DNA of 38,049 nucleotides, from the IMG/VR virus record IMGVR_UViG_2802429217_000005, positions 1 through 38,049 of that record. One strand, written 5' to 3'. The translations under genes and the position numbers were made by a program. The DNA is from a virus (Duplodnaviria > Heunggongvirae > Uroviricota > Caudoviricetes). This document shows, in pieces, positions 4,605 through 27,979 of the stretch; position 1 is the stretch's first letter; each line of letters begins with the position of its first letter. The notes below the pieces were generated by a model. That model saw only the letters and a list, made by a program, of their open reading frames with translations, searched no databases and was not told the DNA's origin.

Positions 4605-5000
4605 TCACATTTCATAGGTAATGACATAAGTCAGATCGGCAGAACTCCACAGGCCCGCATCATCGTCGCGCCGGTAGTCATAGCCACTGGCCACCATACT
4701 GGTGAGCAAATCTGACAGTGCCGGGATATCGCTCATCACCGGATAAATCCGGGACTCCATCCACGAATCCAGCTCTGAATCCGGTACCTGAGCAGGCAGG
4801 AAAACTTCGATATGCAGCTCCGCCTGCCAGGTATCGCTGTCCAGCTCTTCGCCCGTGTATTCAGCGCCGGTGAGATAAACGGCAACTGCCGGAAAATCCG
4901 CCTCATCAAAAACAGCGGGGCGACCATCAAAAAACGTCGCCCCGGTGTCATGCTTCTCCAGTGCATCCAGTACGGCTGCACGGAGTTCAGTATGTTTCAT
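4605..5000 (-). CDS. U: tail terminator protein U
   Basis: 131-aa [34 protein letters not shown]... matching lambda gpU. Confidence 0.93.
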
Positions 5001-5575
5001 CGCTTTATTACCATCCTCAGTTGATGCTGCAGCGCATAGCCCAGCTCTTTCGGAAGACGTTCACGCCGTATCCGCTCAATATTTTGTTTAAACGCCGTGG
5101 TCAGCGGCACCGCCATCGGGATTTTCACCACATCAATGGGGTAACGGTTTTTCCCGGCCACACGCTGCATGACATGCCACCGGCCATTTTTCAGTTGCTG
5201 AATAAACGCGCCGGGAATACGACGGTTACCCACCACAAGCACGCTGCCGCCACCTTTCAGGGATGAACGCTGCCCCTTTTTACGACGCCTGCGGCGCGAA
5301 AGGACAACCCGCGCATTACCCAGCTTGATTACGGGCAAATCCCCCCGGTTAACTTTGATTCTGGCCTGCGGATTTTTGACCGTGGCCCTTTTCAGCCTGG
5401 CCCTTTCCTTTACCAGTTTCCGGCGTACCTTTGTCTCACGGGCAACCTGTGACGCCGACTGCGATATCGCGGATGAAGCAACGCGGTTAATGGCCATTGC
5501 GGCGGCACCGGGCACCGCCGTTCTGCTGATACGGCTGAGGTTTTCAACGGCCTGCTCAAGACCCTGTATGGCCAT
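4997..5575 (-). CDS. Z: tail completion protein Z
   Basis: Protein from the ATG at 5575 (MAIQGLEQAVENLSRISRTAVPGAA..., 192 aa) matches lambda gpZ; the track ORF is extended upstream. Confidence 0.9.
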   Translation of the reverse strand: MAIQGLEQAVENLSRISRTAVPGAAAMAINRVASSAISQSASQVARETKVRRKLVKERARLKRATVKNPQARIKVNRGDLPVIKLGNARVVLSRRRRRKKGQRSSLKGGGSVLVVGNRRIPGAFIQQLKNGRWHVMQRVAGKNRYPIDVVKIPMAVPLTTAFKQNIERIRRERLPKELGYALQHQLRMVIKR

Positions 5576-5586
5576 ACATCCCCCTT

Positions 5587-5940
5587 TCAGCGACGACGGC
5601 TGGCGGCAGGTGGTTGCCCCCGGTTGAGCCAGAGATAACAACTCCCTCCGTCATCCGGAGAAACACGGTCCACCCAGAACATCTCGCCGTTAATGGTCAG
5701 CGTGTCACCACGCCGTACAGCACAAACCGTATCCGTAAGCACAAATAATGACGGGTTACTTCCTTCAATACGGATCCCACTACTGGCAAAACCCAGCGAC
5801 TCCGGATCGTCAAAAACGCCATGAACCTCGCCGCCACGCTGTGCACCGGAGGTGAACTGCGCACTGATGCCCATCACTTCAACAATCGTACTGTCCACCC
5901 CGGCAAGGGCGGCATCAAAGGCATTCTGAAAATCACGCAT
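5587..5940 (-). CDS. FII: head-tail connector protein FII
   Basis: From the ATG at 5940: MRDFQNAFDAALAGVDSTI...WVDRVSPDDGGSCYLWLNRG, 117 aa, clearly related to but diverged from lambda gpFII. Start chosen by alignment to lambda. Confidence 0.8.
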   Translation of the reverse strand: MRDFQNAFDAALAGVDSTIVEVMGISAQFTSGAQRGGEVHGVFDDPESLGFASSGIRIEGSNPSLFVLTDTVCAVRRGDTLTINGEMFWVDRVSPDDGGSCYLWLNRGQPPAASRRR

Positions 5941-6307
5941 AAACAGCCATTCCACCATCAACGTGTGTTTTTGCATCTGAGGACATAATCAGAATCACCC
6001 GACCAACATCCGCAAGCTCAACGGATTCCCCCGTTTCACCATCAACGCCACAGAGATGGAGGCAGGTCAGAACTCTGATGCGCGTTAACGCGCCGGATGT
6101 TTCCTCACGAACATCATGAGCCGCGGTTTCCCGCTCCCGGATATCCATATTCATAACCTGTACATCATCGCCGGATGACTGCATTTCCTCTTCCCATTCT
6201 GCCACCCGCTGCGCTATCTCTGCGGCACTCCCGGATATATCCGGCTCACGCCCCAGAATCAGGGCCAGTTCATCAAGCCGTTTCAGATTTTGCTCTTTCG
6301 TTGCCAT
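5933..6307 (-). CDS. FI: head completion / DNA packaging protein FI-like
   Basis: Position between E and FII; acidic protein starting MATKEQNLKRLDELALILGREPDISGS at the ATG at 6307; only weakly resembles lambda FI from memory. Confidence 0.65.
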   Translation of the reverse strand: MATKEQNLKRLDELALILGREPDISGSAAEIAQRVAEWEEEMQSSGDDVQVMNMDIRERETAAHDVREETSGALTRIRVLTCLHLCGVDGETGESVELADVGRVILIMSSDAKTHVDGGMAVYA

Positions 6308-6358
6308 ATCAGCCCCCTGTGAAAAAAGACACGGGGGCATTTCGCCCCCGCTCACGGA

Positions 6359-7387
6359 TTATTTCACCTGTACCACCACAAACTCATCCGGATCCGGCAA
6401 CACCATCAGCGGCGCGGACTGCGTCATGGTAAATTCACGGGCGGGATCCCCTACCGTCAGCCAGTGTTTCGGATAACGGGAAGAGGCCACCACACCTTCG
6501 GACAACGCCTGAGCATCCTGAATGGCACCGTAACAACGGATCCCATCTGCAGCAGTATTCCCCAGAACCAGCATGCCATCTGGAAGATAACGTTTTTCGA
6601 TACCGTCTTCTGCTATATAAGACGTTTTCGCCACCACAATGGCCAGATCGCCGTAATACCCCTTGAAGGACACCACTGCGCCCAGATCTTTCACTGCCGT
6701 TTCGAGTTGAGAATTTGAACCGCGACGGGTATCCAGTTTTTCGCGGAACAGCTTAAAACCATTCAGAAGACGCCAGACGGTACCGTCCATAATGGCAATA
6801 TTCACAAGACCGCTGGCCTGGTCGCAGTAGAGGTCAATATCATGTGTAGGATCGAACGTGTCACGATCCTGTTTTGACCACTCCTTACCACTACCCTGAG
6901 TGATGTTATTCTTCGTCGACCTGCCAAAATCGACCTCAATTTTCTCGAACTGGTCTCCTTCCATGGTGTATTTGCCATACAACACAGCATTTACCGCCTG
7001 CATTTCTTCCACCTGGACAATCGCGTGCTCTTCCTGTTTGAGGTTATCGGTAATGATACGCAGACGGCGGTAAGCCGGATCATTCAGTTGAGATGGATCT
7101 TCACCAGGAAGGCGCTCAACCGCCTGCTGGTAATTAAATTCGTGTTTCGGCTTGACGTAGCCCGGACGCAACACGCGGGTTTCACCACCACGATGACGCA
7201 GCACTTTTCCTTCAACAACCGGGGAGACATAGGCCGCCACCGGCGTTTTTCCGGTAATTTTGTCCAGCATCACCTCTTCGGTATGGAAATTCACCGTACG
7301 GCGGAAAAACAGCTCCAGAAACAGCGCACGAAATTTAACTTTTTGTTCGGTATAACCGAGTAACTGGCGGGTCGTAAACAATCCCAT
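6359..7387 (-). CDS. E: major capsid protein E
   Basis: 342-aa ORF with extensive blocks shared with lambda gpE (e.g. PGYVKPKHE, EEMQAV, KEKLDTRRGSNS, GDPAREFTM, QSAPLM) but clearly diverged. Confidence 0.9.
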   Translation of the reverse strand: MGLFTTRQLLGYTEQKVKFRALFLELFFRRTVNFHTEEVMLDKITGKTPVAAYVSPVVEGKVLRHRGGETRVLRPGYVKPKHEFNYQQAVERLPGEDPSQLNDPAYRRLRIITDNLKQEEHAIVQVEEMQAVNAVLYGKYTMEGDQFEKIEVDFGRSTKNNITQGSGKEWSKQDRDTFDPTHDIDLYCDQASGLVNIAIMDGTVWRLLNGFKLFREKLDTRRGSNSQLETAVKDLGAVVSFKGYYGDLAIVVAKTSYIAEDGIEKRYLPDGMLVLGNTAADGIRCYGAIQDAQALSEGVVASSRYPKHWLTVGDPAREFTMTQSAPLMVLPDPDEFVVVQVK

Positions 7388-7444
7388 AAATCAGTTCCTT
7401 TCATTCAGAAATCAGTCAGGCCACCGCGGTGGCCTGATAACGTG

Positions 7445-7792
7445 TTACGGCAGCGCCGCGTGACTCAGGGCACTGCCAGCAAAGGCGTTGGCCTTTTTGT
7501 GTTCATCCACACTTTCAGGCCAGTGGATTGCCTCCGTCGCAAAGGTTCCCGACTTGTAATACGTCAGCGCCGTCTCTGTGCCGTCAAGCGGCAGTACCAG
7601 TATGCCAACCGCACTACCGGCTTTCTGTCCGTCCCAGACCACCAGTTTCCCGGTGGCTTCATCCAGCATCAGGGGCGTCAGTGCCGGTGTTGGCGAGGAA
7701 ATCCCGCTGCTGCCTGTGGCGGTATGAGCCGGATCATTACCGGCAAAAATACGTACTTCCGCACGCTGTTCAGTGATGGTTTTCGTCACCAT
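7445..7792 (-). CDS. D: capsid decoration protein D
   Basis: 115-aa ORF with lambda gpD motifs (NDPAHTAT, TPLMLD, WDG, AVGIL, YKSGTF, AFAG), diverged. Confidence 0.85.
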   Translation of the reverse strand: MVTKTITEQRAEVRIFAGNDPAHTATGSSGISSPTPALTPLMLDEATGKLVVWDGQKAGSAVGILVLPLDGTETALTYYKSGTFATEAIHWPESVDEHKKANAFAGSALSHAALP

Positions 7793-7828
7793 ATTGTAAA
7801 AACCTCCTGTTGATGGTCAGCACTGGCT

Positions 7829-9334
7829 TCATGGCATGGCCATGAGCATTTTCACGTCCGCATCACCATCTGCTGACGTCTGTGGCACGCCACCCTGTAC
7901 CGCTGCCGGTGAATGGTTCGCCATGAAATGTTCAAACATGGCGGTTGTGGATGCAGAGACCGGTTCTGCCTTACCTGATCCCGCAGCCAGCACAGCCCGG
8001 GCGCTCTCCACAGTCATTCCCGGGCAGGCAGCCAGCTGTTCAGCCTGCACCTCAGCCCCTTTTGCCTCATCCAGTGCCATGATCTGATCACGGAGTGATG
8101 GTCCGGCATCCGCCTGCGGTGAAGCAGCCAGGATCGGGCGGGCTTTTTCCACCGTCATCTCCGGCATCGCCGCCAGTGTTGCCGCCAGTTGTTCACGACC
8201 GTTCGCTTCTTCACACGCCATAATGCGATCGGCTTCACTCTGCGTGGATGCCACCGGCTGCTGCGGTGCCGCCGCGGCCAGAATCGCCCGGGCCTGTTCA
8301 ACGCTCATGCCCTGTTGTCCTGCCAGCATCGTGGCAAGCTGTTCACGTCCTTTCGCTTCCTGGCATGTCAGGATCCCCATCACTCGCTGGTTCTCCTGCG
8401 CGGCGGCTTCCGTTGCAGTTAATTGCGGCATAGTGCCTCCTCTGACATTACTGTTCAGCGCCGTGGCCATCACACTGATGGCATCCGACGCATTGATTAA
8501 TTCATCCGCCAGCCCGGCCTCAATGCCGGACTGACCTTCAAAAACGGCGGCCTCTGTTCCCGTGACTGCATCAACAGACAGACCGGTAAACATCGCCACT
8601 TTTTCGGCAAACATCCGGCGCGCCGCATCAATCCGCTGCTGCATGTCCTGGCGAACCTCTGCCGGCAACGCTTCAAACTGATTGCCATCCACCTTGTGCG
8701 CCCCTGAGTAAATCAGCGTGATATCCACACCGGCCTGCGCCAGATGACCGGCATAGCTGACATGGCTCATCATCACGCCAATGGAACCGATACGGGATGT
8801 CTGGGTAACCAGCCGTCGGGAGCAGGCCGACGCCAGCAGCATGGCTGCAGAACAGGCCGTGTCATTGCACAGTGCCCAGACCGGCTTCTGCTGACGGAGG
8901 CGGTAAATCATGTCAGCGCAGTCAAACGCGCCGGCGGCCTGCCCACCCGGACTGTCAATGTCCAGCAGTACGCCCCGCACCTGGCTATCCGCCATTGCCT
9001 GCTGAAGACAGGCGACAATACCGTCATAGCCTGTCATTCCGGAAAATGGCCGCATACCACCCAGCCGGTGCACCAGCGTGCCGGTCACCGGCAGTACAGC
9101 AATACCGTTCACCACCCTGTAAACACGGGCAGGTCGTTTACCTCCGGCCATGTACTCGTCCGTTTCAGCCAGCATTCCGGGAGCATCAAACTGTACCTGC
9201 TGTTGTGGTACCGAAAGACTTGCTGCCCCCATCTCGCGCCCGAGCGCGCAAAAGAAAACCCGCGCATAGGCGGGCTCCAGAAGCAGCGGTTCATTGAATG
9301 CTGCGGCAATAATGTGTGAAAGATTACGTCTCAC
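7829..9334 (-). CDS. C: prohead protease/minor capsid protein C with in-frame Nu3-like scaffold region
   Basis: 501-aa ORF; N-terminal S49/ClpP-like peptidase region resembling lambda gpC; C-terminal part has three tandem ~40-aa repeats resembling the Nu3 scaffold region. Confidence 0.88.
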   Translation of the reverse strand: MRRNLSHIIAAAFNEPLLLEPAYARVFFCALGREMGAASLSVPQQQVQFDAPGMLAETDEYMAGGKRPARVYRVVNGIAVLPVTGTLVHRLGGMRPFSGMTGYDGIVACLQQAMADSQVRGVLLDIDSPGGQAAGAFDCADMIYRLRQQKPVWALCNDTACSAAMLLASACSRRLVTQTSRIGSIGVMMSHVSYAGHLAQAGVDITLIYSGAHKVDGNQFEALPAEVRQDMQQRIDAARRMFAEKVAMFTGLSVDAVTGTEAAVFEGQSGIEAGLADELINASDAISVMATALNSNVRGGTMPQLTATEAAAQENQRVMGILTCQEAKGREQLATMLAGQQGMSVEQARAILAAAAPQQPVASTQSEADRIMACEEANGREQLAATLAAMPEMTVEKARPILAASPQADAGPSLRDQIMALDEAKGAEVQAEQLAACPGMTVESARAVLAAGSGKAEPVSASTTAMFEHFMANHSPAAVQGGVPQTSADGDADVKMLMAMP

Positions 9335-10916
9335 GTGGTGTTGTCTCCTCTTCCGGCCTGCGACTCTCCGCTATCTGCTGCTGATACGCCTGCGCTATCC
9401 ACACCGGACGTGAGAGTCCGGCTTTTTGCCGCTCAGCAGATTCCCTGACCTGCTGGCGGAAAATGTCCTGATAATCCTCGCCCATCAGCGCCAGCTCTTT
9501 CTCATACGTGCTCAGTCCGGCCTCAATGCGCATCACTGATTCCTGGACTTCCTTGAGCCCGTCAATGGCCATTCTTCCGGCACCAATCCACTCTGCCCGT
9601 GACCAGGCTGATCGCGCCTGATAAAAATCAAAACGTGCCCGTGGCGGACGAATAATCCCCCGAAGAAGTGCCTCTTCCAGCCAGCAGGAAAACATCTGCG
9701 TGGCCAGCCGGGCCGCAATAAATTTTCGCCGCCCCATAAAATAGCGCCACGACTCATTGGCGGAGGCGCGGGCACTTGAGTAACTGACCTTCGAGTAATC
9801 ACGGGACAACTGTTCGTAGGAAACGCCAAGACCGGCGGCGATATACCGCAGCAGCGCCTGTTCAAGCGCAGAAAATCCATTGTCTGAATCCTGCGCAGTC
9901 TGTAGTTTCAGATCATCACCAGGGAAAAGGTGCGGAATTTTGACACCGCCCAGTGTCACGTTATTCGTGTCATACCAGCTGGAGAACTTCTCCAGAATAT
10001 TAATAAGCGGATTATCCTTCTGCTCCTGTGGCGCGCCGGCGATATATTCAAAGGCCTTTTCGGTATCAAGTTCACTTTCAATCGTCGCTGCATACATCGC
10101 CTTCACTATGGCCGACTGAAGCTGTGTTGCCTGCAGGGAATCGAGCATCTTCAGCCGTTCCATGACGCTGTAAAACTGATTAGCCCCACGGGTCTGCCCG
10201 TCCTCCACCGGCTCGAAAATATGCAGCATGGCCGGACGCCCGGTGGGAAGTTCACGCGGGATCCGTTCCCATCGTCCACTACCAGAGAACGGAAAATCAT
10301 CCTCACAGATATGGTACGCGACGGCACGGCCATATCGATCGACCTCCACACCGGCCCGCAGAAAACGGTTCCCCATACCGTGTCCAGGCGTGTCCACCCG
10401 TTTCGGACTCACGGCTTTAAAACGCGTACGGAATAACTGCGTGGTTTCCGTATCCCAGACCGGCTGCACAAAGATTTCGCCGTTAAACGCATGAACGCCC
10501 ACACCTTCACGGATAAATTCCGTGAACGTGCGTTTTCCTTCCACGTCGATCTCGCCAAACATCCCTTCGGCGTATTCCGACCAGGCCGCCTCCACCTCAT
10601 CGACAAAGCTTTTTGCTGCGGTCTCCCGCATCCCCAGCCAGCGCCAGTTCGGACGGTAGCTGATCAGAAACATATGCCCGACAATGTGATCCTTATGCAG
10701 AGCCACCGCATTAGCCGCTATTCCGTTATTGCGCACCAGATCATCTGCCCGGGCATTCCCCAGACGCAACGCGGGCAGCAGGGCCGCATCGGCACTCTGC
10801 GCCGGTGGCAACCACTCAGCCATTTGCCCGCCAAATCCTGCACCGCCCCCGTTGTAGCTGAGACTCTCACGAAGCGGAACGCCGTTCACATCAATCAGGA
10901 CAGGCGTTCGTTTCAT
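9324..10916 (-). CDS. B: portal protein B
   Basis: 530-aa ORF between W and C, length and position of lambda gpB (533 aa). Confidence 0.9.
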   Translation of the reverse strand: MKRTPVLIDVNGVPLRESLSYNGGGAGFGGQMAEWLPPAQSADAALLPALRLGNARADDLVRNNGIAANAVALHKDHIVGHMFLISYRPNWRWLGMRETAAKSFVDEVEAAWSEYAEGMFGEIDVEGKRTFTEFIREGVGVHAFNGEIFVQPVWDTETTQLFRTRFKAVSPKRVDTPGHGMGNRFLRAGVEVDRYGRAVAYHICEDDFPFSGSGRWERIPRELPTGRPAMLHIFEPVEDGQTRGANQFYSVMERLKMLDSLQATQLQSAIVKAMYAATIESELDTEKAFEYIAGAPQEQKDNPLINILEKFSSWYDTNNVTLGGVKIPHLFPGDDLKLQTAQDSDNGFSALEQALLRYIAAGLGVSYEQLSRDYSKVSYSSARASANESWRYFMGRRKFIAARLATQMFSCWLEEALLRGIIRPPRARFDFYQARSAWSRAEWIGAGRMAIDGLKEVQESVMRIEAGLSTYEKELALMGEDYQDIFRQQVRESAERQKAGLSRPVWIAQAYQQQIAESRRPEEETTPRET

Positions 10917-11119
10917 AACCTCACTCCCAGCGGACGACGGCGACGCCGGGTTGTCCCCAGTACCGACTCCGCATCATTGATCGCCCGGTTAAGCTCATCC
11001 AGAGAAGCCGCCGTATATTCAATTCTGCGACCATCTTTCTGGACAGACACCACCCGTTTACCGGTTAATAAATCAAGGCGCGCCTGACGCAGCGCCTGCA
11101 GTTCAGCGACTGTAACCAT
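10913..11119 (-). CDS. W: head-tail joining protein W
   Basis: 68-aa [38 protein letters not shown]... matching lambda gpW in length and sequence. Confidence 0.9.
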   Translation of the reverse strand: MVTVAELQALRQARLDLLTGKRVVSVQKDGRRIEYTAASLDELNRAINDAESVLGTTRRRRRPLGVRL

Positions 11120-13031
11120 TCACTCCTCCGGACAGCTTCGCTGCCAGTTCTTTAAGGGTTGGCCGGGTCGTCTCTTCTTCCCGGGATTTTGCCAGTACAG
11201 CCAGATCAAGCTGCCAGCGTTGCACGGACACACGTAATGCCGCGTAGGCATACACCAGGCAGTCCAGCGCTTCGTTACGCCGCTTTTTGTTATCCCACAG
11301 CAGACGCATCTTTCCTTTTTCCCACTTCTCCACAAGCTCTTCCGCGACCAGTTGCTGCGCCTCTGTCTGCGAAAAAATCTCCGGATCATCAGGAAAACGG
11401 ATGGCATACGACGTGGCTTCATCCACAGGCGTGGGATCGGCTTTCATACGGGCATAGAGAATTTCTTTTGCGGTGTCCGTCCCCACTTCACACAGATACA
11501 CGCCCCGCTGATTGCGGGTTTTTGGCATGGTGATCACCGGCTTGCCATAGACAGATGCGCCTTTTATCGGCAGCACCCGGAAAACACCGTGTTTTTTTGA
11601 CCTCTGATAAACGATTTCGCCATCGATCCCCCCGATGTCCCAGCAGACACGAGAAATAGTCATTTCGGTTCCGTCTGCATGGCGGTATTTTTTGTTGATC
11701 GCCGCATCCACACGTAACAGCGTCTCTTCCTCATCGGGACGCCCCATAATGATGATTTTATCCACCAGAAAGGCTTCCTCTCCCGGAGCCCATCCCCAGA
11801 CATACATCTCAAAACGGTTTCGCTGCGAGTCAATGCCCGCCGTCAGATAAACCACCCGGGCAGGCACCGCCGCCGTGTAACGCACAACCTTATCCATCAG
11901 TACCTGGTGATCGAGTTTTTCGCCCACGGCCTCTTCCCAGGTCTCGCCCAGCGTGGTGTTCACAAAGGTTTTCAGGCCGTTGGGATCTTTCAGTGCATCC
12001 AGCCAGTCATAGACAATCTGTACCCATGTGGTGAACGGACTGTACGCCGTCCAGATATGGAAAGTGATGGAGCGCGGCGGCGGAATTTCATCACCCCGGG
12101 CGCTGAAAAACATCAGGCCGTCACGGGTCCACATGCCCGTGTTTTCACAGATCCACCGCCCGTTACTCTGGTCAAGCTCAGACTGATGGATCACACAGCC
12201 ATGATGCTCACAAAGGTAGAAAACACTCTCTGGCTTATTCTTCTCCCACTTAAGACCGAAAGGCGAGGCATCATCGCCAAATTTCAGATACTGCTCCTCC
12301 CCACAGTGCGGACAGGGCACATAAAAACGCATGAAGTGTGCCGACTCGTTAGCGGCTTTTTCGATCTGGCAGGAGCCTTTGATTTTAGGCGTCGAGCCGC
12401 GAATGGATTTTGGCCATACAGAGCCCTCAATACGTTTATCCCCCAGCAGGGTTGGCGAACCCTCTTTTTCAACATCCGGTTCGAACGAGGAAAGCTCGTC
12501 ATAACAGACCACATCCACGGATTTTTCACGGTAGTTTTTTGCTGCCGCACCACCCAGACACCAGAACCCCACACCGGAGGAAAAACGCTTCAGGGTGAGC
12601 GTATTATCGCGGTGTTTTCTTCCGAACCATGGAGCCAGCTCCAGCAATGCAGGAACATCCCTTATCGTTGGCTCAACATGAGATTTCATAAAATCTTCAG
12701 CAGCTGAGTCCGTGGGCTGAAAAAGAAGGCTGTTGCGTGATTTATGCTCAATAAAATAAGCCTCCACTCCCAGCAACATCTTTGTATAACCAACACGGGC
12801 AGATTTAATCAGGTTAACCGTGCGAATCAGATCGTTGCCCATACAGTTCATGATGCCAACCTGAAACGGCAGTGTTTCCCACCGCCCCGGGGTATAAGAC
12901 GACTCTTTAGGAAGGTAATAATGTTTATTGGCCCACTGAACTGTCGTCAGTGGAACAGGAATAATGAGAGATAAAAGCCCTGTAGCTATCGCACCGGCTG
13001 CATTAGCTGCCTTCTGCGCGTCTGAAATCAT
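11103..13031 (-). CDS. A: terminase large subunit A
   Basis: Long blocks identical or near-identical to lambda gpA ([63 protein letters not shown]); start placed at the ATG at 13031, giving a lambda-like ~29-nt overlap with Nu1. The N-terminal ~45 aa differ from lambda. Confidence 0.93.
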
Positions 13032-13551
13032 CGATCCACCCGCCCACGTTTTCACCGGCCTTAGCTGCAACATTGGAGGCTTTCGCGATTTCAGTTTTCA
13101 CCACATCAAGGTGTGATGGTGAAATGTCCGGATATTTACGCTGTAATGTCAACGGCACACGCACAAGTATCCCCGAAATCTCCTGTGCCACACGTTGCAG
13201 AATGAAGGTAAACAGTTCAGTTTCCAGCACTACTCCGTCTTCACGGGCATTTTTCAGTTCCTGCGCATCTGCCTGCGCTTTTGTGAGCCTGTAGCGTTCA
13301 TAGTCAATGGTGCCGGGTTGTAAATCTGACTCCGCTGCCGCACGCAAATCGTCCAGTTCTTTGCGGAGCTTTTCGTTTTCGATATCAGTTTCCCTCTGCG
13401 CATACCACTGAATTGCCATGGCAGTATCAAATACAGATTCAATGCCCTTACTACCTTTGGAGGCGCAAGGGAGTCCCTGAGACTGCCAGCGTTCAATCGT
13501 CCGCGGGTCCACGTTGAAAATTTCGGCAAGCCTCTTTTTATTAACCTTCAT
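13003..13551 (-). CDS. nu1: terminase small subunit Nu1
   Basis: 182-aa [31 protein letters not shown]... with an HTH and strong similarity to lambda Nu1 ([36 protein letters not shown]). Confidence 0.9.
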
Positions 13552-13726
13552 GAAAACAACCCATTATCAAATACAAGGCCCGACATGAAAACGCCAGAAA
13601 AAGGCATTTTCGGACACTTTCATGTCGGACCTTTACGGATGAAATATTAAAAAAAACAAAAAGTTATATTCGAGAAGTACCGACACGATTTTCCCTGAAA
13701 AATTTTCATAAATAGTGAAAAACCGC

Positions 13727-13738
13727 GAGGTCGCCGCC
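13727..13738. other. cosN cohesive-end site (12-nt overhang); cosB presumably lies between it and nu1
   Basis: Plus-strand AGGTCGCCGCCC is GGGCGGCGACCT on the minus strand, the lambda left cohesive end, followed by CTCGCGGTTTTTCACTATTTATGAAAATTTT matching the lambda cos flank; about 187 bp from the nu1 ATG, as in lambda. Confidence 0.8.
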
Positions 13739-14299
13739 CCGTAGCCTGCCGGATCACCGGAAAGGACCCGCAAAACCGAGAATAAGTATCAATACTATTT
13801 GTGATTTGAATGATGCACATCATTGAAACGCCATTCATCCATATACCAGCAGCATTCGGTGTTGCACTTCGTAACTCTGTGACTACGGTTATAAAAGCAT
13901 TGGCAACTTTTGCCACCGGCAAGTCTTCAATGGATTTCCCCTGCCGGTTTTTTATTTTCGTCGATGCATAACATTGCATTTACATCAATAGCAGCTATTG
14001 TCATTAGTATGTTACATCGATGCATGGGTGGTATTGGCGGTCTTCGCCGACCGGTTCTGTGTAGCTCCCTATGACCGGTTTTTTATTTCTAAGATTACAG
14101 AAGCCCTTCACTGTATGAAGGGCTTCTGTAACTCTTCTTACTTAGTAATTTTCGCACCTTCCGGTATTTCCATGAGTTGAGAAAACCTCATACTATCCGA
14201 CAATAATCATCAATATACGATAAAGACATCTGACCAGATTGCAGTATTAAAAGCACTCATGCAGACTACGCCCCTCATATCATATACAAGGGGATACTG

Positions 14300-14710
14300 A
14301 TGGCTCAGGTTGCCATTTTTAAAGAAATATTTGATCAAGTGCGGAAAGATTTAAACTGTGACCGGTTTTACTCTGAACTAAAACGCCACAATGTCTCACA
14401 TTACATTTACTATTTAGCCACAGGTAATATTCACATTGTATTTGAGAGCGATAACACGGTGTTAATAAAAGGTTTCCATGATGTTATTCATGTTAGCTTT
14501 TGCAGAGACACGCGACTTATAGAAACTTACCTTCATAAGTTGAAATCAAGAGAAATCACATTTCATGAATACAGGGTAAATCTGGCTAAAGCTGGAGTTT
14601 TCCGATGGGTTACAAATATCCACGAACACAAAAGATATTACTATACCTTTGACAACTCATTATTGTTTACCGAAAGCATCCAGAACACGACTCAAATTTT
14701 TCCACGCTAA
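14300..14710 (+). CDS. DUF1398-family moron protein (YbcV-like)
   Basis: 136-aa [43 protein letters not shown]...; recalled as the YbcV/DUF1398 family found next to bor in lambdoid prophages; opposite strand to the late genes. Confidence 0.6.
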
Positions 14711-14934
14711 ACCATAACGTCCGGTTTGATCCGCCTCAGTAGCCGGCACTCCCACACAGGAGTTACCAGTCGGTGCTGTGGCCATAGTTAATCTGGGTAT
14801 ACAGTAAAGATACAGCACATCTGGCATACTTTAATAAACATTAACAATATGAGATTTCAACTCATTGTTTAGGTTTTGTTTAAATTTCCACAAATACGAT
14901 GCACCAAACTTAAAAACACAACGGGAATCACACG

Positions 14935-15228
14935 ATGAAAAAAACGCTACTCACTTTCACACTGGCGCTGCTTATCTCTGGATGTGCTCAACAGACGTTT
15001 ACAGTTGAAAACAAACCTACAACAGTAACACCGAAGGAAACCATCACTCATCATTTCTTCGTTTCAGGAATTGGTCAGAAGAAAACTGTCGATGCAGCCA
15101 AAATTTGTGGTGGCGCAGATAAAGTTGTTAAAACTGAAACCCAGCAAACATTCGTAAATGGATTGCTCGGTTTTATTACTTTAGGCATTTATACTCCGCT
15201 TGAAGCTCGGGTCTATTGCTCACAATAA
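14935..15228 (+). CDS. bor: Bor lipoprotein (serum-resistance moron)
   Basis: 97-aa ORF MKKTLLTFTLALLISGCAQQTFTVENKP... with a signal peptide and lipobox (LISGC); near-identical to lambda Bor from memory. Confidence 0.9.
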   Translation: MKKTLLTFTLALLISGCAQQTFTVENKPTTVTPKETITHHFFVSGIGQKKTVDAAKICGGADKVVKTETQQTFVNGLLGFITLGIYTPLEARVYCSQ

Positions 15229-15235
15229 TTACATG

Positions 15236-15265
15236 CGCTGCCCATCAATATGGGCAGTTTTATTT
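15236..15265 (+). terminator. candidate intrinsic terminator after bor
   Basis: Hairpin CTGCCCAT-CAAT-ATGGGCAG (8-bp stem) followed by TTTTATTT, directly after the bor stop. Confidence 0.6.
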
Positions 15266-15658
15266 ACACTGTTAACCCCTTGGTTGTTTCAGCCGCCGGG
15301 GTTTTACTTGTTATTCACTGGTATGAGTACGACATCTGGCCATTTCATTCCGGGCTTTACTGTCGCCGCGACAGATGCAACGCATCGTATCGCCGTTCAG
15401 CGTAGTGATATAAGCCTCATCCGTTTTCTCTACCTGCAAACATGAAATATTCCCGTTCCGGCAATACTCAATTTTTGCTGCCAGATGGGTATTACGCGGG
15501 TAAAACTCCATACGATACATATCCCCCCAGGACATGCACTTCCTCAACCTGACGACCATCTTCAGTTACCGTAATCTTTTTCAGTGCGTACATACGTACC
15601 TCCGTTCTTTCGTTTTTTGAACAATAAAAAAGCCACCGAAGTGACCTTTTCGATGAGT

Positions 15659-16204
15659 TTATAAACCAACGCGCTCTTTCATCCAGCCATAGACAAACGA
15701 CTCGTTAGCCTCGCGTTTCTCTGCCAGCGCCAGATAACGCTCACCCTGCGTACAGTTCAGGGCTTTCACCAGTACCAGTTCGCCATCCCTGCCGCGATTT
15801 TTCAGATAAGAACGTAACGCATTAATGGTTCGCGGCCCGATCCCCCCGTCTGTAACTATGTCCGGATACAGCATTCCCTTCTGATTAAACACATTCAGCC
15901 AGCGCTGAAGCATTTTTGTGGCTACCGACGGCCCCATGTTTACCCCGGTATCACACAGTTCTGCAGCAATATCAGGAGACAGGTTTGCCACCTGGTCAAA
16001 ACGAGGTCCATACCAATAGTCCGCCTCAAGGATTTCCAGAGCCTGCCCGCGGCTCAAATCACGCATATCACCACGGTAACCATGCGCGCGCGCCACTTTT
16101 TCAGTAATTCCCCACTTCGTCGCTCCGCCTGTATCGTCAGGATGACTGACATAACCCCCCTCTTTTCCGAGGATTTCATCAAAAATTTCATCTCTCGATT
16201 TCAT
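15659..16204 (-). CDS. endolysin, glycoside hydrolase family 108-like with C-terminal peptidoglycan-binding domain
   Basis: N-terminal motif SRDEIFDEILGKEGGYVSHPDDTGGATKWGIT typical of GH108 muramidases (TtsA-like) as recalled; sits directly after two small membrane protein genes; start set to the ATG at 16204 (the track starts at a GTG). Confidence 0.7.
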   Translation of the reverse strand: MKSRDEIFDEILGKEGGYVSHPDDTGGATKWGITEKVARAHGYRGDMRDLSRGQALEILEADYWYGPRFDQVANLSPDIAAELCDTGVNMGPSVATKMLQRWLNVFNQKGMLYPDIVTDGGIGPRTINALRSYLKNRGRDGELVLVKALNCTQGERYLALAEKREANESFVYGWMKERVGL

Positions 16205-16205
16205 A

Positions 16206-16484
16206 TCAGCCACTCAGGAAAGCAAAAATTTTTGAAACATTACCGCGCGCACGCACTACCATGACACCAAATACCAGGTTCAGCATCACCACCAGCCAGT
16301 CTGCCGGCAACGGATGACCACAGAGATAACTTAACGGCGTTATCGCATACAACAGCATCAGACACCAGGCGCACCACGATATCAGCGGTTTGTGTCGTGA
16401 CTCTTTTCTGCGGTAGAAAAAAAGCGTCAGCACGATAACCGTACATAACGCCGCATTCAGTAATCCTGGAAGATTATTTGTCAT
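16206..16484 (-). CDS. small 3-TM membrane protein of the lysis cassette (holin or antiholin-like)
   Basis: About 92 aa from the ATG at 16484 with three hydrophobic segments; GGAGG upstream; lies between the putative holin and the endolysin. Confidence 0.5.
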   Translation of the reverse strand: MTNNLPGLLNAALCTVIVLTLFFYRRKESRHKPLISWCAWCLMLLYAITPLSYLCGHPLPADWLVVMLNLVFGVMVVRARGNVSKIFAFLSG

Positions 16485-16866
16485 TACCACCACCTCCTCC
16501 ACGCTGACGGGAGAACAGACCGGATACCAGTGATGTAATCTCCTGCTGGTGGATGAATGACAGGACTTTTACTGAGAGCACCGACACCAGGACCGCACAC
16601 AACGCATCAACGGAAGCACTGTTAAACCCAATACGTTCCGCCATGTAACCGGCCACACCACGGGCCCCAAGCACACCAACAATAAAGGACACCAGAAAAT
16701 GTGCAGCCACACGCCAGGCTGAAAGTGTCTGCGGCATTGTTGCCACAAATAACGCACCAGCGAACGCACCAAATACAATCCCGAAATCCGTCCCGGTAAA
16801 CAGCCCGAATACCGTCGCCCCGCCGAGCGCCACAGCAGTGCCGGAACCGGATAAGGGTTCAGACAT
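16474..16866 (-). CDS. putative holin
   Basis: About 130 aa from the ATG at 16866 (AGGAG 8 nt upstream); Gly/Ala-rich hydrophobic segments and a charged C-terminal tail; first gene of the lysis cassette. Confidence 0.55.
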   Translation of the reverse strand: MSEPLSGSGTAVALGGATVFGLFTGTDFGIVFGAFAGALFVATMPQTLSAWRVAAHFLVSFIVGVLGARGVAGYMAERIGFNSASVDALCAVLVSVLSVKVLSFIHQQEITSLVSGLFSRQRGGGGGNDK

Positions 16867-17065
16867 ATTTATTCTCCTGTAAATAAAAAGGACCATCAGC
16901 GGCCCCGTAACTGACATTTTATTAACGTTTGAAGATATGGATATTTATCAGGGTTTACCGTTTTCTGAACCCTGGATATGTTAAGCATTCAGCCCGCCAG
17001 TGGTGGGACGCTGGCTCATCATAGAGAAAGAGGGATGGCTGATTACCTCTGATCAGGGAAATTAC

Positions 17066-17335
17066 ATGCAGTTTTTACATAAAAGAATGCATTTAAATGC
17101 AGGAGATACGGTAGTGGTTGACTGCTCTCATCAGTGCAATATTTTGCTGATGACAGATACAAACTTTAATAACTACCGCAACGCAAGAAGCTTTCATCAT
17201 CACGGTGGTGGCGGTTTTTTTCAGAGATTACCGGCCCACCTTCATGTCCCGCATTCAGGTTACTGGAATATTACAATTGATTTAGGAGGCGGAAGTGCAG
17301 CTATTCGGCACTCCATTTCCGTCATCCCAGCATAG
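17066..17335 (+). CDS. hypothetical protein
   Basis: ORF on the strand opposite the late genes; start placed at the ATG at 17066 (MQFLHKRMHLNAGDTVVVDCSHQC...); contains HHHGGGGFF; no family recognised with confidence. Confidence 0.35.
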   Translation: MQFLHKRMHLNAGDTVVVDCSHQCNILLMTDTNFNNYRNARSFHHHGGGGFFQRLPAHLHVPHSGYWNITIDLGGGSAAIRHSISVIPA

Positions 17336-17700
17336 CAACTCGCCTTTAGCCTGAGTAAATGCGTCCTCAAGGACGGCAACGAGTCGCAGTTGCGTGCCGT
17401 CCTTTACACAGCGTGTGCAGCAATACCTTCAGAACTTTCATTATGCCGAGCTCATACAATTTCACCATTTTGTTCAACTACAACGCTCATAATTTTCTTA
17501 CACTTTTTTAATAAACCACACCAATAACAACCATCACCGATACCTTTTGTATGCTGTTATTTTGCATTACGGTGTAACGGCAAGAGCCCCCTCCCCGCCC
17601 ACCAACACACCATCAGCCAGTACCGACATCAACCGCCCAGTGAAATCCACTGCCACTACCAGAAACAACAGGATGGCAGCCAGCACAAGGCCCGCACTTT

Positions 17701-18126
17701 TCACAGATACTGCTCCAGTGGTAACTGAAGCGCCTGTGCAATTTTCTTGAGCTGCGCTTCTTCATCCGGACCAATGCCATCCTGATCAGCGATATCCAGA
17801 CAGAGGCAAAGCACGTCAACCGCCTCAGTTGTCCCCGCCACATCAGCCAGCTCACGTAATGCATGCGCATTCGCACTACGCGGTGACGCTTCATAACGGG
17901 CGCGGATATTGGCGCTCATCTGGGCAATCTCACCAGAGAACGGTGCAAAAGCAGGAAGCGCAGCAATGGTTTTCTCCAGTACTGCGATTTCTTTTGCGTC
18001 GCAGGTGCCGTCGGCATATGCAATGGAATATGCGCCCCAGACGGTCGCCTCCACCGCATCACGGTTCTCCATCTTCTTCACTTCAGTGATGGCCTTGCGG
18101 GTTTTCTTTTTGAAAATACCTAACAT
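17701..18126 (-). CDS. TerB-like (tellurite-resistance TerB family fold) protein
   Basis: 141-aa ORF; pattern AYADGTCDAKEIAVLEKTIAALP ... LCLCLDIADQDGIGPDEEAQLKKIAQAL resembles the TerB/DjlA N-terminal family as recalled. Confidence 0.45.
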   Translation of the reverse strand: MLGIFKKKTRKAITEVKKMENRDAVEATVWGAYSIAYADGTCDAKEIAVLEKTIAALPAFAPFSGEIAQMSANIRARYEASPRSANAHALRELADVAGTTEAVDVLCLCLDIADQDGIGPDEEAQLKKIAQALQLPLEQYL

Positions 18127-20539: not shown

Positions 20540-20712
20540 GTCTTTTTCTCTTTATTGGTTAACGTGACATACCAATAACTCTTGTCGAAGAAGCCAGCAA
20601 GCTGAAAGACCGGTATTAATAACCACCTGCACATTTTATGTACCGAACCATTTTTCTGGCATAAAAAACCTCTCAATGGCGGGCGGTAAAAATCTTTGTT
20701 ACTCAAGAAATT

Positions 20713-21426
20713 TTAACGCACTCTGACTGTATTAATTTCAAAATCATTAATATTTCCGCTATTAAATATAACGAATTTCTTACTCCCACTCCTGTATGAT
20801 TTCGATAACACCAGACGATCATCATAACGCGCAATAATGTAATACCATACATTCTCATAGTGGATCACCTGATATTCCCTCTTAAACTGTGGTTTGTACC
20901 AACCGGCAATAAGAGAGAATGCCCAGAAATAAATCATAAACCCAGCCATCATGAACTCAATTCGGTGATGGCGAATAAAAGACATTTCCGAAAAACATTT
21001 GACTGAAACAAGTCTTCTTCCAGACCTGACAAAAAGCGTGATTGTAAAGGCAGCAAGAATGCAGAAAATCAGTACATCTGGCTCAACATGCTGATGAATT
21101 ACCGAAAACTCCAGAACAGGTGGAATAAAAAGCAGCAATATCGCGAGAAAAAGCCGGATAAAACTCAAATTTTGTATATTGCGCTTTTGTTTTATGCCCA
21201 AAAAGAAAACAATACCAACTCCCCATCCAATAAGGAATATAACGATAACTGTCACAGCATAAAACAAACTTCGTGCAACATCATCGACACCAGCCCCGAC
21301 AACCCACCATGGAAAGCCATAGTAAAATGAAGTACCCCATCCATAGAAATAAGCGCTTCCCCATCCTAGACAGCCCATATAAGCAACAAAAAGTGAAGAG
21401 TTTCTGAGCAGAGCACTGTCATTCAT
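20713..21426 (-). CDS. multi-pass membrane protein of unknown function (late-region moron)
   Basis: 237-aa ORF with about five hydrophobic Trp/Tyr-rich segments; visibly AT-rich DNA; first gene downstream of the candidate tR'. Confidence 0.55.
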   Translation of the reverse strand: MNDSALLRNSSLFVAYMGCLGWGSAYFYGWGTSFYYGFPWWVVGAGVDDVARSLFYAVTVIVIFLIGWGVGIVFFLGIKQKRNIQNLSFIRLFLAILLLFIPPVLEFSVIHQHVEPDVLIFCILAAFTITLFVRSGRRLVSVKCFSEMSFIRHHRIEFMMAGFMIYFWAFSLIAGWYKPQFKREYQVIHYENVWYYIIARYDDRLVLSKSYRSGSKKFVIFNSGNINDFEINTVRVR

Positions 21427-24841: not shown

Positions 24842-24856
24842 TTACCCTCCCCTCTA
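24842..24856. repeat. left copy of a 15-bp perfect direct repeat TTACCCTCCCCTCTA
   Basis: Exact 15-mer, repeated at 25962-25976; the flanks continue as an imperfect repeat (CGATACTACAAC vs CGATATACTA...GCTACAAC). Confidence 0.8.
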
Positions 24857-24943
24857 GTTCATTCGATACTACAACTTTATTTTCTTTTCGTTGTCTATAT
24901 AGTAAATAACATGTAATAAAAGTTACTCACTAACAATGGAGAG

Positions 24944-25168
24944 ATGCATATGCCCACACTTATCGGAAAAGTGCTTCGTCGATACACAAGTGCTGTAGCA
25001 ACCCATGTTGACACCCATCTTGAGCAAACGACAAAATATCGTCTTACAGTTGATGCGAACGGTAATGCCACCCTGAACATAGAAAACCCAGAAGTTCAAG
25101 CAGACATCATCAAGAAAATGAAACAATTGCGAAAACTACATAACCGTACAGACAAGGAAGTTGCTTAA
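24944..25168 (+). CDS. small basic protein of unknown function (first gene of the repeat-bounded operon)
   Basis: 74-aa ORF (likely start at the ATG at 24950, GGAGAG 6 nt upstream); its TAA overlaps the ATG of the next gene (TAATG); candidate -35 TTGTCT / -10 TAATAA upstream. Confidence 0.5.
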   Translation: MHMPTLIGKVLRRYTSAVATHVDTHLEQTTKYRLTVDANGNATLNIENPEVQADIIKKMKQLRKLHNRTDKEVA

Positions 25169-25959
25169 TGGGTCCATTGATTATAACTGTGATTCTCGTG
25201 TGTGGTTTTTGGTACACCGAGAATCACTATCAATCGAGAATTCATCACGCAAGAACAAATGGGTGGTCATCCTATTTCTACGTTGCAATGCATGGGTGTC
25301 GTTTTGTTGCTCAAGGATTTCTTTTGACGCTCGGGATCTACATGCTTTTCTGGCTACTGAACTCTATCCCACACATAATCAATATTTTCCGAGACAAACC
25401 TATAGAATGGCATTTTTTTAATTGGTTACTTGAAACCAAAGTGATGGAATTACCACTTTTTGCTGTCATCACCATCATTTTCGCTTGTTGTATTGCTTAC
25501 TCTGAGGGGGTGGATGCGCGAAAAGAAATGGAGAATGAAGAAGCGCGCCAAAAGGCTTACAGGGAGATGGCATCAAAAGATTCACTAGAAAACCTATTGA
25601 TCCAAGCCATTGACACAGAGATGCTGATTTTTGTAACACTAAAATCCAGAAAAGTATATATCGGGTATGTGTCAGCACCACGTGTTGAATTCCACAACAG
25701 TGCGCATCTTGAGATCATACCATTCATTAGTGGTTACAGAGATAAGGACTCACTACGCTACATAGAACAACACCGATACTATGATCTCTATCTATCCAAA
25801 GAAATCACATTTGAGTCCGAACCATTAAATTTACAACATTTTCGACACGTCATTCCTATCGAACAAATTGAAGCGATCTCGCTCTTTGATGAAAGCACGT
25901 ACAGCGATTTTGAAAGATTTTCCGAGCCAATGCCTGACACAAAGCAATTACCAGTATAG
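25168..25959 (+). CDS. membrane protein with three N-terminal TM helices and a ~150-aa C-terminal domain, unknown function
   Basis: 263-aa ORF, translationally coupled to the upstream gene; AAGGAAG Shine-Dalgarno; visibly AT-rich; no family recognised. Confidence 0.6.
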   Translation: MGPLIITVILVCGFWYTENHYQSRIHHARTNGWSSYFYVAMHGCRFVAQGFLLTLGIYMLFWLLNSIPHIINIFRDKPIEWHFFNWLLETKVMELPLFAVITIIFACCIAYSEGVDARKEMENEEARQKAYREMASKDSLENLLIQAIDTEMLIFVTLKSRKVYIGYVSAPRVEFHNSAHLEIIPFISGYRDKDSLRYIEQHRYYDLYLSKEITFESEPLNLQHFRHVIPIEQIEAISLFDESTYSDFERFSEPMPDTKQLPV

Positions 25960-25961
25960 TA

Positions 25962-25976
25962 TTACCCTCCCCTCTA
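25962..25976. repeat. right copy of the 15-bp direct repeat TTACCCTCCCCTCTA
   Basis: Exact match to 24842-24856, 3 nt after the stop of the 263-aa gene. Confidence 0.8.
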
Positions 25977-26282
25977 ACGATATACTAAAAAGCCGCTACA
26001 ACTGGACTGCCCCCATAAAGTTGGACAGTTCATGTTAAGCGGCTTTCAGGGCTTGACCCAACAGAAGTTAGATTGTAAGTATCCCGCTTAAACGGACCAT
26101 CTGGTCTTTGTTCCACGGTGACGTGCTCATACCTCCTGAAATGTGGGAGATTTGAGTATGGTTGTCCCTTATGAGCGAAATTTGCACGAAGCGGATAAGT
26201 TACCGGAGCTGAAGGTCCGCTGTGAGCGAAGAGCGGACCTGAGATTGTGGTATGCTAATTTATGGGGATCAGGTCAATTGTA

Positions 26283-26975
26283 TTAGTTATCTTTTTGCTT
26301 TTCTTTATCCCATTTCTTTGCAGTGGTCTGATACCACTCTTCACGCACTCGTTGTTCCTCGGCTCTGTCACTTGAATTATAGTTGTCCGTTTTAATTTTT
26401 TTGCTTCCATGGGAAATCGGCCTCCAGTCTTCTCTAATCTTTTTCACCTGCTCGGCTATCTGTGTCATTGGACTCCTTGCACCTAAGTAGCTAACCCCCT
26501 CGAAAGAAGCCATATCATAAGAATACTCATTCCGCTCTCTTTCAGTTGAGCCCGGCTGTTTAGACCAACTAATACTAACAGAATAAACTTGATCTTTAAT
26601 CTGTTCATACTTACAAAGACTGCTGTTGAGCGAATGGCCGTTTTTTAATACGCTAACCTTGCTAAATGGTATACCTATATTTTTTCTATGTTCAGCATTT
26701 ACCAGTGGGGGATTAAATCCGATTTCAATATCATAGGCTGGGGCATTTCCGGTATTAGCAATATTGATATCAAAATAAAAAGCAGCCCAAGAATTTGGTT
26801 CAAGAGTCACAACGACGTGAGGTTGAACTGATGCGTCAACCATCCTTTTTGTCTCGTCTGCTAATAGCCTTGTTACTCTCCACAAGAAAAATGTAGCAAC
26901 TGCTGTTAGCAATGCTGCCAAAGCGGAGATAAGTGTGCTTACAGTGTTTATATGCTCTGCGATAAATTCGATCAT
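26283..26975 (-). CDS. N-terminally TM-anchored protein of unknown function
   Basis: 230-aa ORF with one hydrophobic segment (residues ~10-32) and a Lys/Glu-rich C-terminus; AAGGA Shine-Dalgarno; convergent with the repeat-bounded operon. Confidence 0.55.
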   Translation of the reverse strand: MIEFIAEHINTVSTLISALAALLTAVATFFLWRVTRLLADETKRMVDASVQPHVVVTLEPNSWAAFYFDINIANTGNAPAYDIEIGFNPPLVNAEHRKNIGIPFSKVSVLKNGHSLNSSLCKYEQIKDQVYSVSISWSKQPGSTERERNEYSYDMASFEGVSYLGARSPMTQIAEQVKKIREDWRPISHGSKKIKTDNYNSSDRAEEQRVREEWYQTTAKKWDKEKQKDN

Positions 26976-27466
26976 GAGTTGTCCTTGGGGGCGTACTAAT
27001 TGTTTTCAAGACTAAAATAGCGCCGGGCTTGAAAAATTGCACACTTATGGTTCGATTTACCTCAACAGTTAAGGCTTCAGCTTCCCCCATGCACCTCACC
27101 CAGCTCAAGACTGTATGATGTCTGACAAAGAACTTACTGACACTTGAAAACGAGGTAGCGTCTAGGATTTCTCGTAGGGGAAGGATTGAATACGAAGCCT
27201 GTATATTGCTCCGCGAACGCTGCTGAGAGCAGTTTAAATGTTGGGCGTTTATGTGGCCTTTCACTCACCAGCATGAGTTCAATGCCTGTGAATTACCGAC
27301 AACAATATAAAGGGGGTGGCATCATCATATATCCAAGGTAGAGTCAAATCCTTTAACTGGTTTTATGATCAGCGTCAATTGTTTAATTATTGAACGTTTA
27401 CGAAGCGGCACGGGAGTCATATAACTAATGGGCAGGTATAAGCCTGTATCACGAGGAATCAGTAAA

Positions 27467-27646: not shown

Positions 27647-27698
27647 TATATGAGCGCCTTTCTAGGCGCTTTTTTCTCTGTCCTTTTGGAGATGATTT

Positions 27699-27977: not shown

Positions 27978-27979
27978 TT

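Follow-up and report, generated by a model that had tools for sequence, protein, structure and literature searches.

A GH108 endolysin cassette with no recognisable spanin gene in an Escherichia coli lambdoid prophage

The spanin catalogue of Kongari et al. (2018; PMC6139136) lists phage phiP27 with a 'separated' two-component spanin that has the shortest periplasmic span in the catalogue (62 residues), and for about 13% of phages infecting Gram-negative bacteria no spanin can be identified (PMC6139136). According to the same source, lambda Rz/Rz1 mutants give fragile spherical cells held together by the outer membrane, whose lysis requires shear or a low concentration of divalent cations. Here we analysed the lysis cassette in IMG/VR virus record IMGVR_UViG_2802429217_000005 (positions 1 to 38,049; this whole stretch of 38,049 nt is called the window below), which comes from a mosaic, Rac/phiP27-like lambdoid prophage of E. 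coli and covers 38 kb of it. An initial annotation, made from the sequence alone, had described a cassette with a GH108-type endolysin and no recognisable spanin genes.

Two holin-family membrane proteins and a soluble GH108/PG_binding_3 endolysin are intact in the window (Table 1). We consider this very probably an ordinary lysis cassette of E. coli lambdoid prophages that has lost its transmembrane (TM) protein and lipoprotein genes by mosaicism, and in which a 93-codon gene behind the endolysin is frameshifted, rather than a new lysis mechanism. The absence of a spanin from the window is best read, on the sequence, as a secondary loss at a mosaic junction. The searches of the window for spanins, the DNA alignment of the frameshifted gene, and a census of related cassettes carry this explanation.

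Lysis genes of the window and the search for a spanin

The order proposed initially, i.e., a holin-like gene, a gene for a protein with three TM segments and a GH108 endolysin gene, is borne out on the minus strand by Pfam and PHROG matches together with hydropathy. Both holin-like genes lie directly upstream of the endolysin gene, their PF16931 and PF05449 scores exceed the gathering thresholds, and hydropathy gives several TM domains (TMDs) for each product, while the tools used cannot separate a holin from an antiholin or accessory protein within the Phage_holin_8/Phage_holin_3_7 pair. The product of the first gene has about four hydrophobic segments, and its open reading frame (ORF) can be extended to an ATG at 16917; the second gene overlaps the end of the first with its 5' end, and its own stop overlaps the endolysin start. 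The endolysin contains GKEGGY (the EGGY catalytic-region motif) and is assigned to GH108 (N4 gp61-like muramidase family), its activity being predicted from this membership. By hydropathy, it has no signal-arrest-release or other signal sequence and no hydrophobic segment. Its C-terminus has no cationic tail or helix: the last 35 residues hold six positive and five negative charges, and with this charge balance an endolysin tail active on the outer membrane is not supported.

To find lipoproteins, we scanned all six frames of the whole window from every ATG, GTG and TTG start, keeping ORFs of at least 25 amino acids (aa) with a lipobox after an uncharged hydrophobic stretch (h-region). Bor was the only convincing lipoprotein in the 38 kb, the other candidates being a handful of ORFs, short or implausible, at a distance from the late operon. 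Searching the window by tblastn gave no match to Rz of lambda, 933W, Proteus or Xenorhabdus, to Rz1 of lambda or 933W, or to the phiP27-type lipoprotein, and no ORF of 20 aa or more at 15230-15660 encodes a TM segment or a lipobox. The Prokaryotic Genome Annotation Pipeline (PGAP) annotates no spanin across 40 kb of the closely related mosaic prophage of strain 357900. Regarding the known spanin types, the window contains no o-spanin of the two-component Rz/Rz1 type (Bor, a member of the Lambda_Bor family, is encoded on the other strand), no i-spanin with an N-terminal TMD and periplasmic coiled coil (no TM ORF at 15230-15660, and negative Rz searches), no unimolecular spanin of the T1 gp11 type (N-terminal lipobox and C-terminal TMD) by the lipobox scan, and no phiP27-type set (phrog_7528 lipoprotein with small TM proteins, phrog_1115). 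The initial statement that no Rz/Rz1-like, lipobox or signal-anchor ORF lies downstream of the endolysin is upheld by tblastn and by the lipobox scan. Neither of them turned up what that annotation had named as able to overturn it, a short spanin pair or a unimolecular spanin.

It is extremely improbable that a spanin of the window was missed because of a non-canonical lipobox, an unusual start codon or a site far from the lysis genes. Annotation does often miss o-spanins (196 unannotated ones in Kongari 2018, PMC6139136), and our filter demands a minimum ORF length and a hydrophobic h-region. However, the six-frame scan left only Bor credible over 38 kb, all six Rz/Rz1 types and the phiP27-type lipoprotein remained without a match, and there are only 430 bp between the endolysin stop and bor, with no suitable ORF in them. 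Hidden or embedded spanins were dismissed on the negative lipobox scan and tblastn.

Several other features were observed near the cassette or in the same scans. On the minus strand, a terminator-like hairpin (GGGGCCGCTGATGGTCCT then TTTTATTT; 16879-16906) directly precedes the Shine-Dalgarno site of the first holin gene, within the possible 17-codon N-terminal extension of that gene (ATG 16917). About 690 bp between a DUF3927 gene and the holin gene (16906-17598) are absent from the otherwise near-identical module of NZ_CP038859; this stretch includes a DUF1883 ORF on the opposite strand (17000-17335, plus) and has the look of a small cargo insertion directly ahead of the lysis genes. At 17567-18126 (minus), a TerB-family gene (141 aa) overlaps the start of the gene for the 45-aa DUF3927 single-TM protein, in the late operon directly upstream of the lysis cassette. 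Much further away, a 171-aa ORF (25444-25959, plus) has an N-terminal hydrophobic segment ending in IIFACC (lipobox-like) and no significant Pfam match; it lies inside 24852-28118, a stretch of the variable early-gene region without a match in NZ_CP038859, and may be a cargo or defence gene.

The frameshifted gene behind the endolysin and its family

A 33-codon ORF preceded by GGAGG, to which the initial annotation had drawn attention, is present behind the endolysin gene: it runs on the minus strand from an ATG at 15593 to 15492, and GGAGG (15603-15599) stands 5 nt ahead of the ATG. What did not hold is its status as an intact gene. Its first 23 codons are codons 1-23 of a 93-codon gene and are followed by 10 out-of-frame codons, while the remaining 70 codons of the 93-codon gene lie in another frame that reaches a stop at 15313-15311; the break falls in a run of six G (G6; Table 1). 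At the same locus of a related prophage, PGAP calls a 283-bp 'frameshifted' hypothetical pseudogene, which corresponds to window positions 15593-15311. When the 93-aa protein of PapRG-04-4 is used as the tblastn query, the match splits in the window into residues 1-23 (96% identity) and residues 23-93 (85%). Intact 282-bp genes of 93 codons are found at this locus in PapRG-04-4, BCE049 and Ceylon31, the last with the same bor flank, and the locus DNA of the window is 99.6% identical to the intact Ceylon31 copy. The family (phrog_33497) has the N-terminus MYALKKITVTEDGRQVEEVHVLG, to which residues 1-23 of the 33-codon ORF correspond; its conserved features, N-terminal MYALK..GR.VEE..LG.MYRLEF and, in the C-terminal half, AYITTL.GDT.R, are both found in the window, in two frames. 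From these comparisons the window copy is a pseudogene member of phrog_33497, and the 33-codon ORF is not an independent gene. We rejected the idea that this ORF encodes a peptide by itself, because the PGAP flag, the DNA alignment and the split tblastn match mark it as a frameshift stub.

The extra G could be a sequencing error, or slippage could restore the frame, so that the 93-aa gene would still be expressed and give a functional lysis-associated accessory protein. The shift does lie in a homopolymer, and the Shine-Dalgarno sequence, the start codon and both coding halves are well conserved, as the protein and DNA identities given above indicate. However, the G6 allele occurs in about 10 independently assembled complete E. 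coli genomes and in five IMG/VR contigs, which argues for a real mutation and not an assembly error of a single record, and the PGAP flag points the same way. A G6 run is not known as an efficient slippery site, and no stimulatory structure is known downstream of it. Even if made, the protein has no membrane-targeting feature, and its family co-occurs with Rz elsewhere. We therefore regard continued expression of the 93-aa gene as very unlikely.

The family phrog_33497 matches no Pfam family and is tiny, being restricted to Enterobacterales with 47 clusters and 22 representatives among 1.8 billion proteins. The 93-aa protein has no hydrophobic or TM segment, no signal sequence and a net charge of 0, and cysteines are not conserved in the family alignment. 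Its AlphaFold2 (AF2) model is a beta-meander with seven beta-strands and one helix (pLDDT, the predicted local distance difference test score, 89.8), and a structure search with this model returned no informative structural neighbour. Members of the family are encoded after the endolysin in E. coli, Edwardsiella and Cronobacter, and in Proteus and Xenorhabdus, whose cassettes additionally have a canonical PF03245 Rz, they are located between Q and the holin. The family is a late-operon accessory or cargo gene and not a spanin substitute. As a spanin or disruptin substitute, the 93-aa protein was rejected (no TM segment, no signal, net charge 0, co-occurrence with Rz in Proteus and Xenorhabdus). 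In particular, resemblance to a disruptin-like peptide (phiKT gp28) was not found: the 33-codon ORF has a net charge of -1, the repaired 93-aa protein one of 0, and the AF2 model is beta-rich.

We note that in Edwardsiella (L015, 3717-3932) and Cronobacter (L018, 3715-3921 and 4340-4540) prophages a cysteine-rich protein of 68-71 aa (…GDHEVH…C.H…NGC.YCC..CH) is encoded downstream of the endolysin and ahead of the 93-aa family gene. Neither prophage shows an evident Rz-like gene, and the Cronobacter one has a 66-aa lipoprotein (LSLAGC) right behind the 93-aa gene.

Between the endolysin stop and the frameshifted gene, the terminator scan reports a match at 15656-15633 (AAAAGGUCAC-UUCG-GUGGCUUUU then UUUUUUAUU), and the hairpin folds at -12.4 kcal/mol as compared to -4.35 +/- 2.03 for shuffled sequences (z -3.97; 0 of 200 shuffles as good). 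Scan and shuffle test thus agree with the initial observation of a hairpin and U-tract after the endolysin. A search of the intergenic regions against Rfam found no known RNA element. PapRG-04-4 keeps the homologous stem with differences on both strands (read from the alignment and fold). The hairpin is mainly seen where the 93-aa gene directly adjoins the endolysin, and also in L024, which has no 93-aa gene; it is absent from cassettes of the tm57/lipoprotein type. By this distribution, the hairpin appears to go with the 93-aa gene and not with the endolysin. The proposal that the hairpin and a 33-aa peptide stand in the place of spanins, in a working spanin-free cassette, is not supported, as the peptide is the stub of a gene that is intact in relatives.

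Related cassettes, the mosaic junction and the probable loss of spanins

The census of related cassettes covers 80 IMG/VR loci whose endolysin is 82-100% identical to that of the window, counted as contigs and not as independent events. The holin pair of the window is present in 66 of these loci, and 54 of the 66 carry a strongly conserved 60-aa lipoprotein behind the endolysin (phrog_7528; M.RKHWTHRMPRTAAKWALVAILVPFxLVGC then VSLDKARQLFDTASQVCEIVDGVRQCMQN). In most close relatives, genes for one or two tiny TM proteins with a C-terminal anchor (phrog_1115 and a 44-aa protein) come after the endolysin, and the lipoprotein gene comes next, sometimes with the 93-aa gene interposed; in three loci there is no gap at all between the endolysin stop and the lipoprotein gene. 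The other 14 loci are P2-like with a different holin, and in 13 of them the o-spanin position is taken by an ORF for a proline-rich lipoprotein, which in L056 overlaps the gene of an i-spanin that has an N-terminal TMD. The lipoprotein is absent from 12 of the 66 loci, including five of the window's own type and one (L080) in which the contig ends 253 bp past the endolysin. Other lipoprotein-free loci have the 93-aa gene leading straight into Nu1 (BCE049 and L050) or LT-II toxin genes (Rac-SA53, SerU-LTIIb, L051, L052 and L078), and L024 and L025 lack the lipoprotein as well. The comparison with other GH108 cassettes, which the initial annotation had suggested, does not support a cassette that works without spanins: most close relatives do carry a lipoprotein catalogued as an o-spanin, or overlapped spanins, and the 93-aa family also occurs alongside canonical Rz.

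The 60-aa lipoprotein coincides with the phiP27 o-spanin ORF of Kongari et al. 2018 (record 20706-20861), and the 'spanin' label on the phiP27-type set is a bioinformatic prediction. With the consensus ...LVPFxLVGC VSLDKARQLFDTASQVCEIVDGVRQC..., this lipoprotein is found in 314 of 5426 complete E. coli genomes (~6%) and so belongs to a common E. coli prophage cassette. Its regular partner, encoded just ahead of it, is a 37-60-aa protein with a single C-terminal TMD (phrog_1115), often with the extra 44-aa TM protein, and not a canonical type II i-spanin; the i-spanin listed for phiP27 in Kongari 2018 (a 64-aa TTG ORF) has no counterpart in the other loci examined. Examples of such TM/lipoprotein sets in relatives, not in the window, are L003 4486-4843, L007 4579-4936, L027 4707-5228 and L081 ~4700-5060. 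Since the holin-endolysin core recurs with and without the lipoprotein, it offers a convenient natural series for asking whether such minimal pairs are real spanins.

Downstream of the frameshifted gene, the window resembles the PapRG-04-4 type up to about 15270, i.e., through the 93-aa gene and a weak 3' hairpin (~15300-15265) common to the window and PapRG-type prophages. From 15271 on it is lambda/933W-like, with the last 12 nt of Rz and the Rz-bor bidirectional terminator (15237-15258). Correspondingly, the megablast match to 933W starts 12 nt ahead of the Rz stop and runs through the terminator into bor with 87.6% identity, and bor itself shares 87-88% DNA identity with bor of lambda and Stx phages. 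Further on, the Nu1-type small terminase subunit gene starts the packaging and head genes, which ends the space available for lysis genes. In Ceylon31 (L010 997-1889 versus window 15311-16204), the stretch from the 93-aa gene to the bor junction is 99.6% identical to the window, whereas the endolysin is just 87% identical, which indicates a second, sharp breakpoint at the endolysin stop or hairpin; this breakpoint fits a hairpin that goes with the 93-aa gene. The simplest reading of these sequence relationships is that recombination at module boundaries joined holins, endolysin and 93-aa gene to the Rz 3' end, bor and DUF1398, and that both kinds of spanin were left out.

The module recurs in other genomes: 501 bp around the 33-codon ORF are 99.8-100% identical to about 10 complete E. 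coli chromosomes. Strain 357900 shares the stretch from the lysis genes to DUF1398 (13709-16905) at 99.7% identity, whereas elsewhere the window is mosaic with respect to that genome. Some sister copies have decayed further, with IS3 in the endolysin gene of MS 119-7 and an insertion of ~2.2 kb in the 93-aa gene of L022. Separately, we observed that positions 5716-13708 (terminase, portal, head) have no megablast match to the NZ_CP038859 prophage, with flanking tail and lysis modules that are 97-99.7% identical, which on alignment indicates a probable head-module swap between otherwise similar prophages.

If the cassette is an ordinary one that lost its spanin genes, one or both holin-family proteins would permeabilise the inner membrane, as expected from family knowledge, and the cytoplasmic GH108 endolysin would then reach and degrade the murein. 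The set of tiny TM proteins and lipoprotein seen in relatives is absent behind the endolysin, where only the 93-aa gene is left, inactivated by the additional G, and the prophage would have acquired bor without Rz/Rz1 and without the TM/lipoprotein set. By analogy with lambda Rz/Rz1 mutants, induction should produce a spanin-null phenotype: cells would become spherical while the outer membrane stays intact, and phage would be released only with the help of shear, of low divalent cations or of spanins from another resident prophage; rescue by the spanins of a co-resident prophage is possible.

Some points weigh against this explanation. The TM/lipoprotein set of the relatives is a predicted spanin only, and the shortest in the catalogue, so that the 'spanin loss' may be the loss of something else. 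Several lipoprotein-free configurations of the same holin-endolysin module exist, and such recurrent absence could mean that these genes are dispensable for lysis. The Rz remnant is only about 12 nt long and diverged, so that the donor of the bor segment is inferred rather than established. A still-viable phage would be compatible with the related prophage of NZ_CP038859, which has no other pseudogene in 40 kb, and with the occurrence of the frameshifted module next to more than one kind of head module and in strains of several continents.

Some of these points would also be expected if the cassette were complete and the outer membrane were disrupted without a spanin, by one of the two holin-like proteins, the endolysin or another unrecognised factor, i.e., in a true 'spanin-less' E. 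coli phage lineage of the kind Kongari et al. left open. At least four spanin-less arrangements stand behind the same holin-endolysin module, several prophage backbones and hosts carry this module, the related prophage seems intact apart from it, and the share of Gram-negative-host phages without an identifiable spanin (see above) points the same way. Nevertheless, we hold this to be unlikely: the lipoprotein is present in most close relatives and abuts the endolysin stop in three loci, the endolysin has no amphipathic cationic tail, and the sole extra gene in the window is frameshifted. Moreover, prophages persist without functional lysis, so their presence in genomes is uninformative on lysis competence, and insertions of insertion sequence (IS) elements in sister copies indicate relaxed selection. 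There is likewise only a small chance that the window type, the type with the 93-aa gene leading into Nu1 and the LT-II types are all functional and complete lysis without any spanin. Spanin-free lysis, if true, would mean that the two-holin/endolysin core has an unrecognised activity that disrupts the outer membrane, or that the TM/lipoprotein set found in relatives has a dispensable role other than that of a spanin. Under the favoured explanation of mosaic loss and frameshift, the window itself has little import, and the 33-aa peptide is not worth pursuing.

Table 1. Features of the lysis region and its downstream flank, in window coordinates
Feature	Coordinates	Strand	Evidence or location
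Holin-like gene 1 (130 aa, Phage_holin_8)	16474..16866	-	PF16931 E 3.5e-22; phrog_198 'holin' 1.7e-39; hydropathy; PGAP start in related prophage
Holin-like gene 2 (92 aa, 3 TM, Phage_holin_3_7)	16206..16484	-	PF05449 E 4.2e-21; phrog_217 'holin' 1.9e-35; three hydrophobic segments
Soluble endolysin (181 aa; GH108 + PG_binding_3)	15659..16204	-	PF05838 2e-25; PF09374 9.5e-25; phrog_315 endolysin
Terminator-like hairpin (UUCG loop) with U-tract	15623..15656	-	Between endolysin stop and Shine-Dalgarno sequence of the 93-aa gene
Pseudogene of 93-aa late-region accessory protein (phrog_33497)	15311..15593	-	PGAP 'frameshifted'; split tblastn; intact relatives; family alignment
G6 run (G5 in intact relatives), 1-nt insertion, frame broken at codon 24	15523..15528	-	DNA alignment and sequence read
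Mosaic junction	15229..15300		Megablast to 933W; alignments; terminator scan and fold
bor (97-aa lipoprotein, lysogen-expressed, convergent with lysis genes; not a spanin)	14935..15228	+	PF06291 Lambda_Bor 1.6e-30; lipobox scan
DUF1398 (YbcV-like) gene, same bor module	14300..14710	+	PF07166 9.8e-43; annotated in related genomes
Nu1-type small terminase subunit	13003..13551	-	ORF list; Nu1-type terS in same position in relatives

Comparison with named lysis systems

Recognised families account for both holins, the GH108 endolysin, bor and the frameshifted pseudogene, all of which are annotated accordingly in near-identical public copies. Of the described cassettes, those of phiP27, phiSTEC1575-Stx2k and the LT-II prophages Rac-SA53 and SerU-LTIIb come closest. 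The holin pair is shared with phiP27 (~80% DNA identity), phiSTEC1575-Stx2k and PapRG-04-4. PapRG-04-4 also has a similar GH108 endolysin, whereas that of phiP27 and phiSTEC1575-Stx2k is an M15 peptidase. As in the window, PapRG-04-4 and phiSTEC1575-Stx2k have the 93-aa gene behind the endolysin; in contrast to all three, the window has no TM protein(s) and lipoprotein, and its 93-aa gene is frameshifted. Rac-SA53 and SerU-LTIIb contain the same module of two holins and GH108 endolysin (~80% DNA identity) and likewise no spanin-type gene downstream, but LT-II A/B toxin genes follow the endolysin there, in the place of the frameshifted 93-aa gene and bor of the window.

The phiKT 'disruptin', which we take to be a small cationic lysis peptide, differs from the small ORF of the window, which is a frameshift stub; neither the stub nor the repaired 93-aa protein is cationic, and both are predicted to be beta-rich with no amphipathic helix. 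Like the window, phiKT, listed as spanin-less (PMC6139136), combines the absence of an identifiable spanin with a small ORF behind the endolysin.

Lambda and 933W (S-R-Rz/Rz1-bor) share with the window a convergent bor at the end of the lysis region and a shared bidirectional terminator, while they have unrelated holins and an unrelated endolysin (a transglycosylase in the case of lambda R), and of Rz the window keeps only its short 3' end. The P2-like cassettes have an endolysin of the same GH108 clade as the window (83-87% protein identity), combined with a different holin region and a canonical overlapped pair, in which the 135-aa i-spanin has its TMD at the N-terminus and the o-spanin is a proline-rich lipoprotein.

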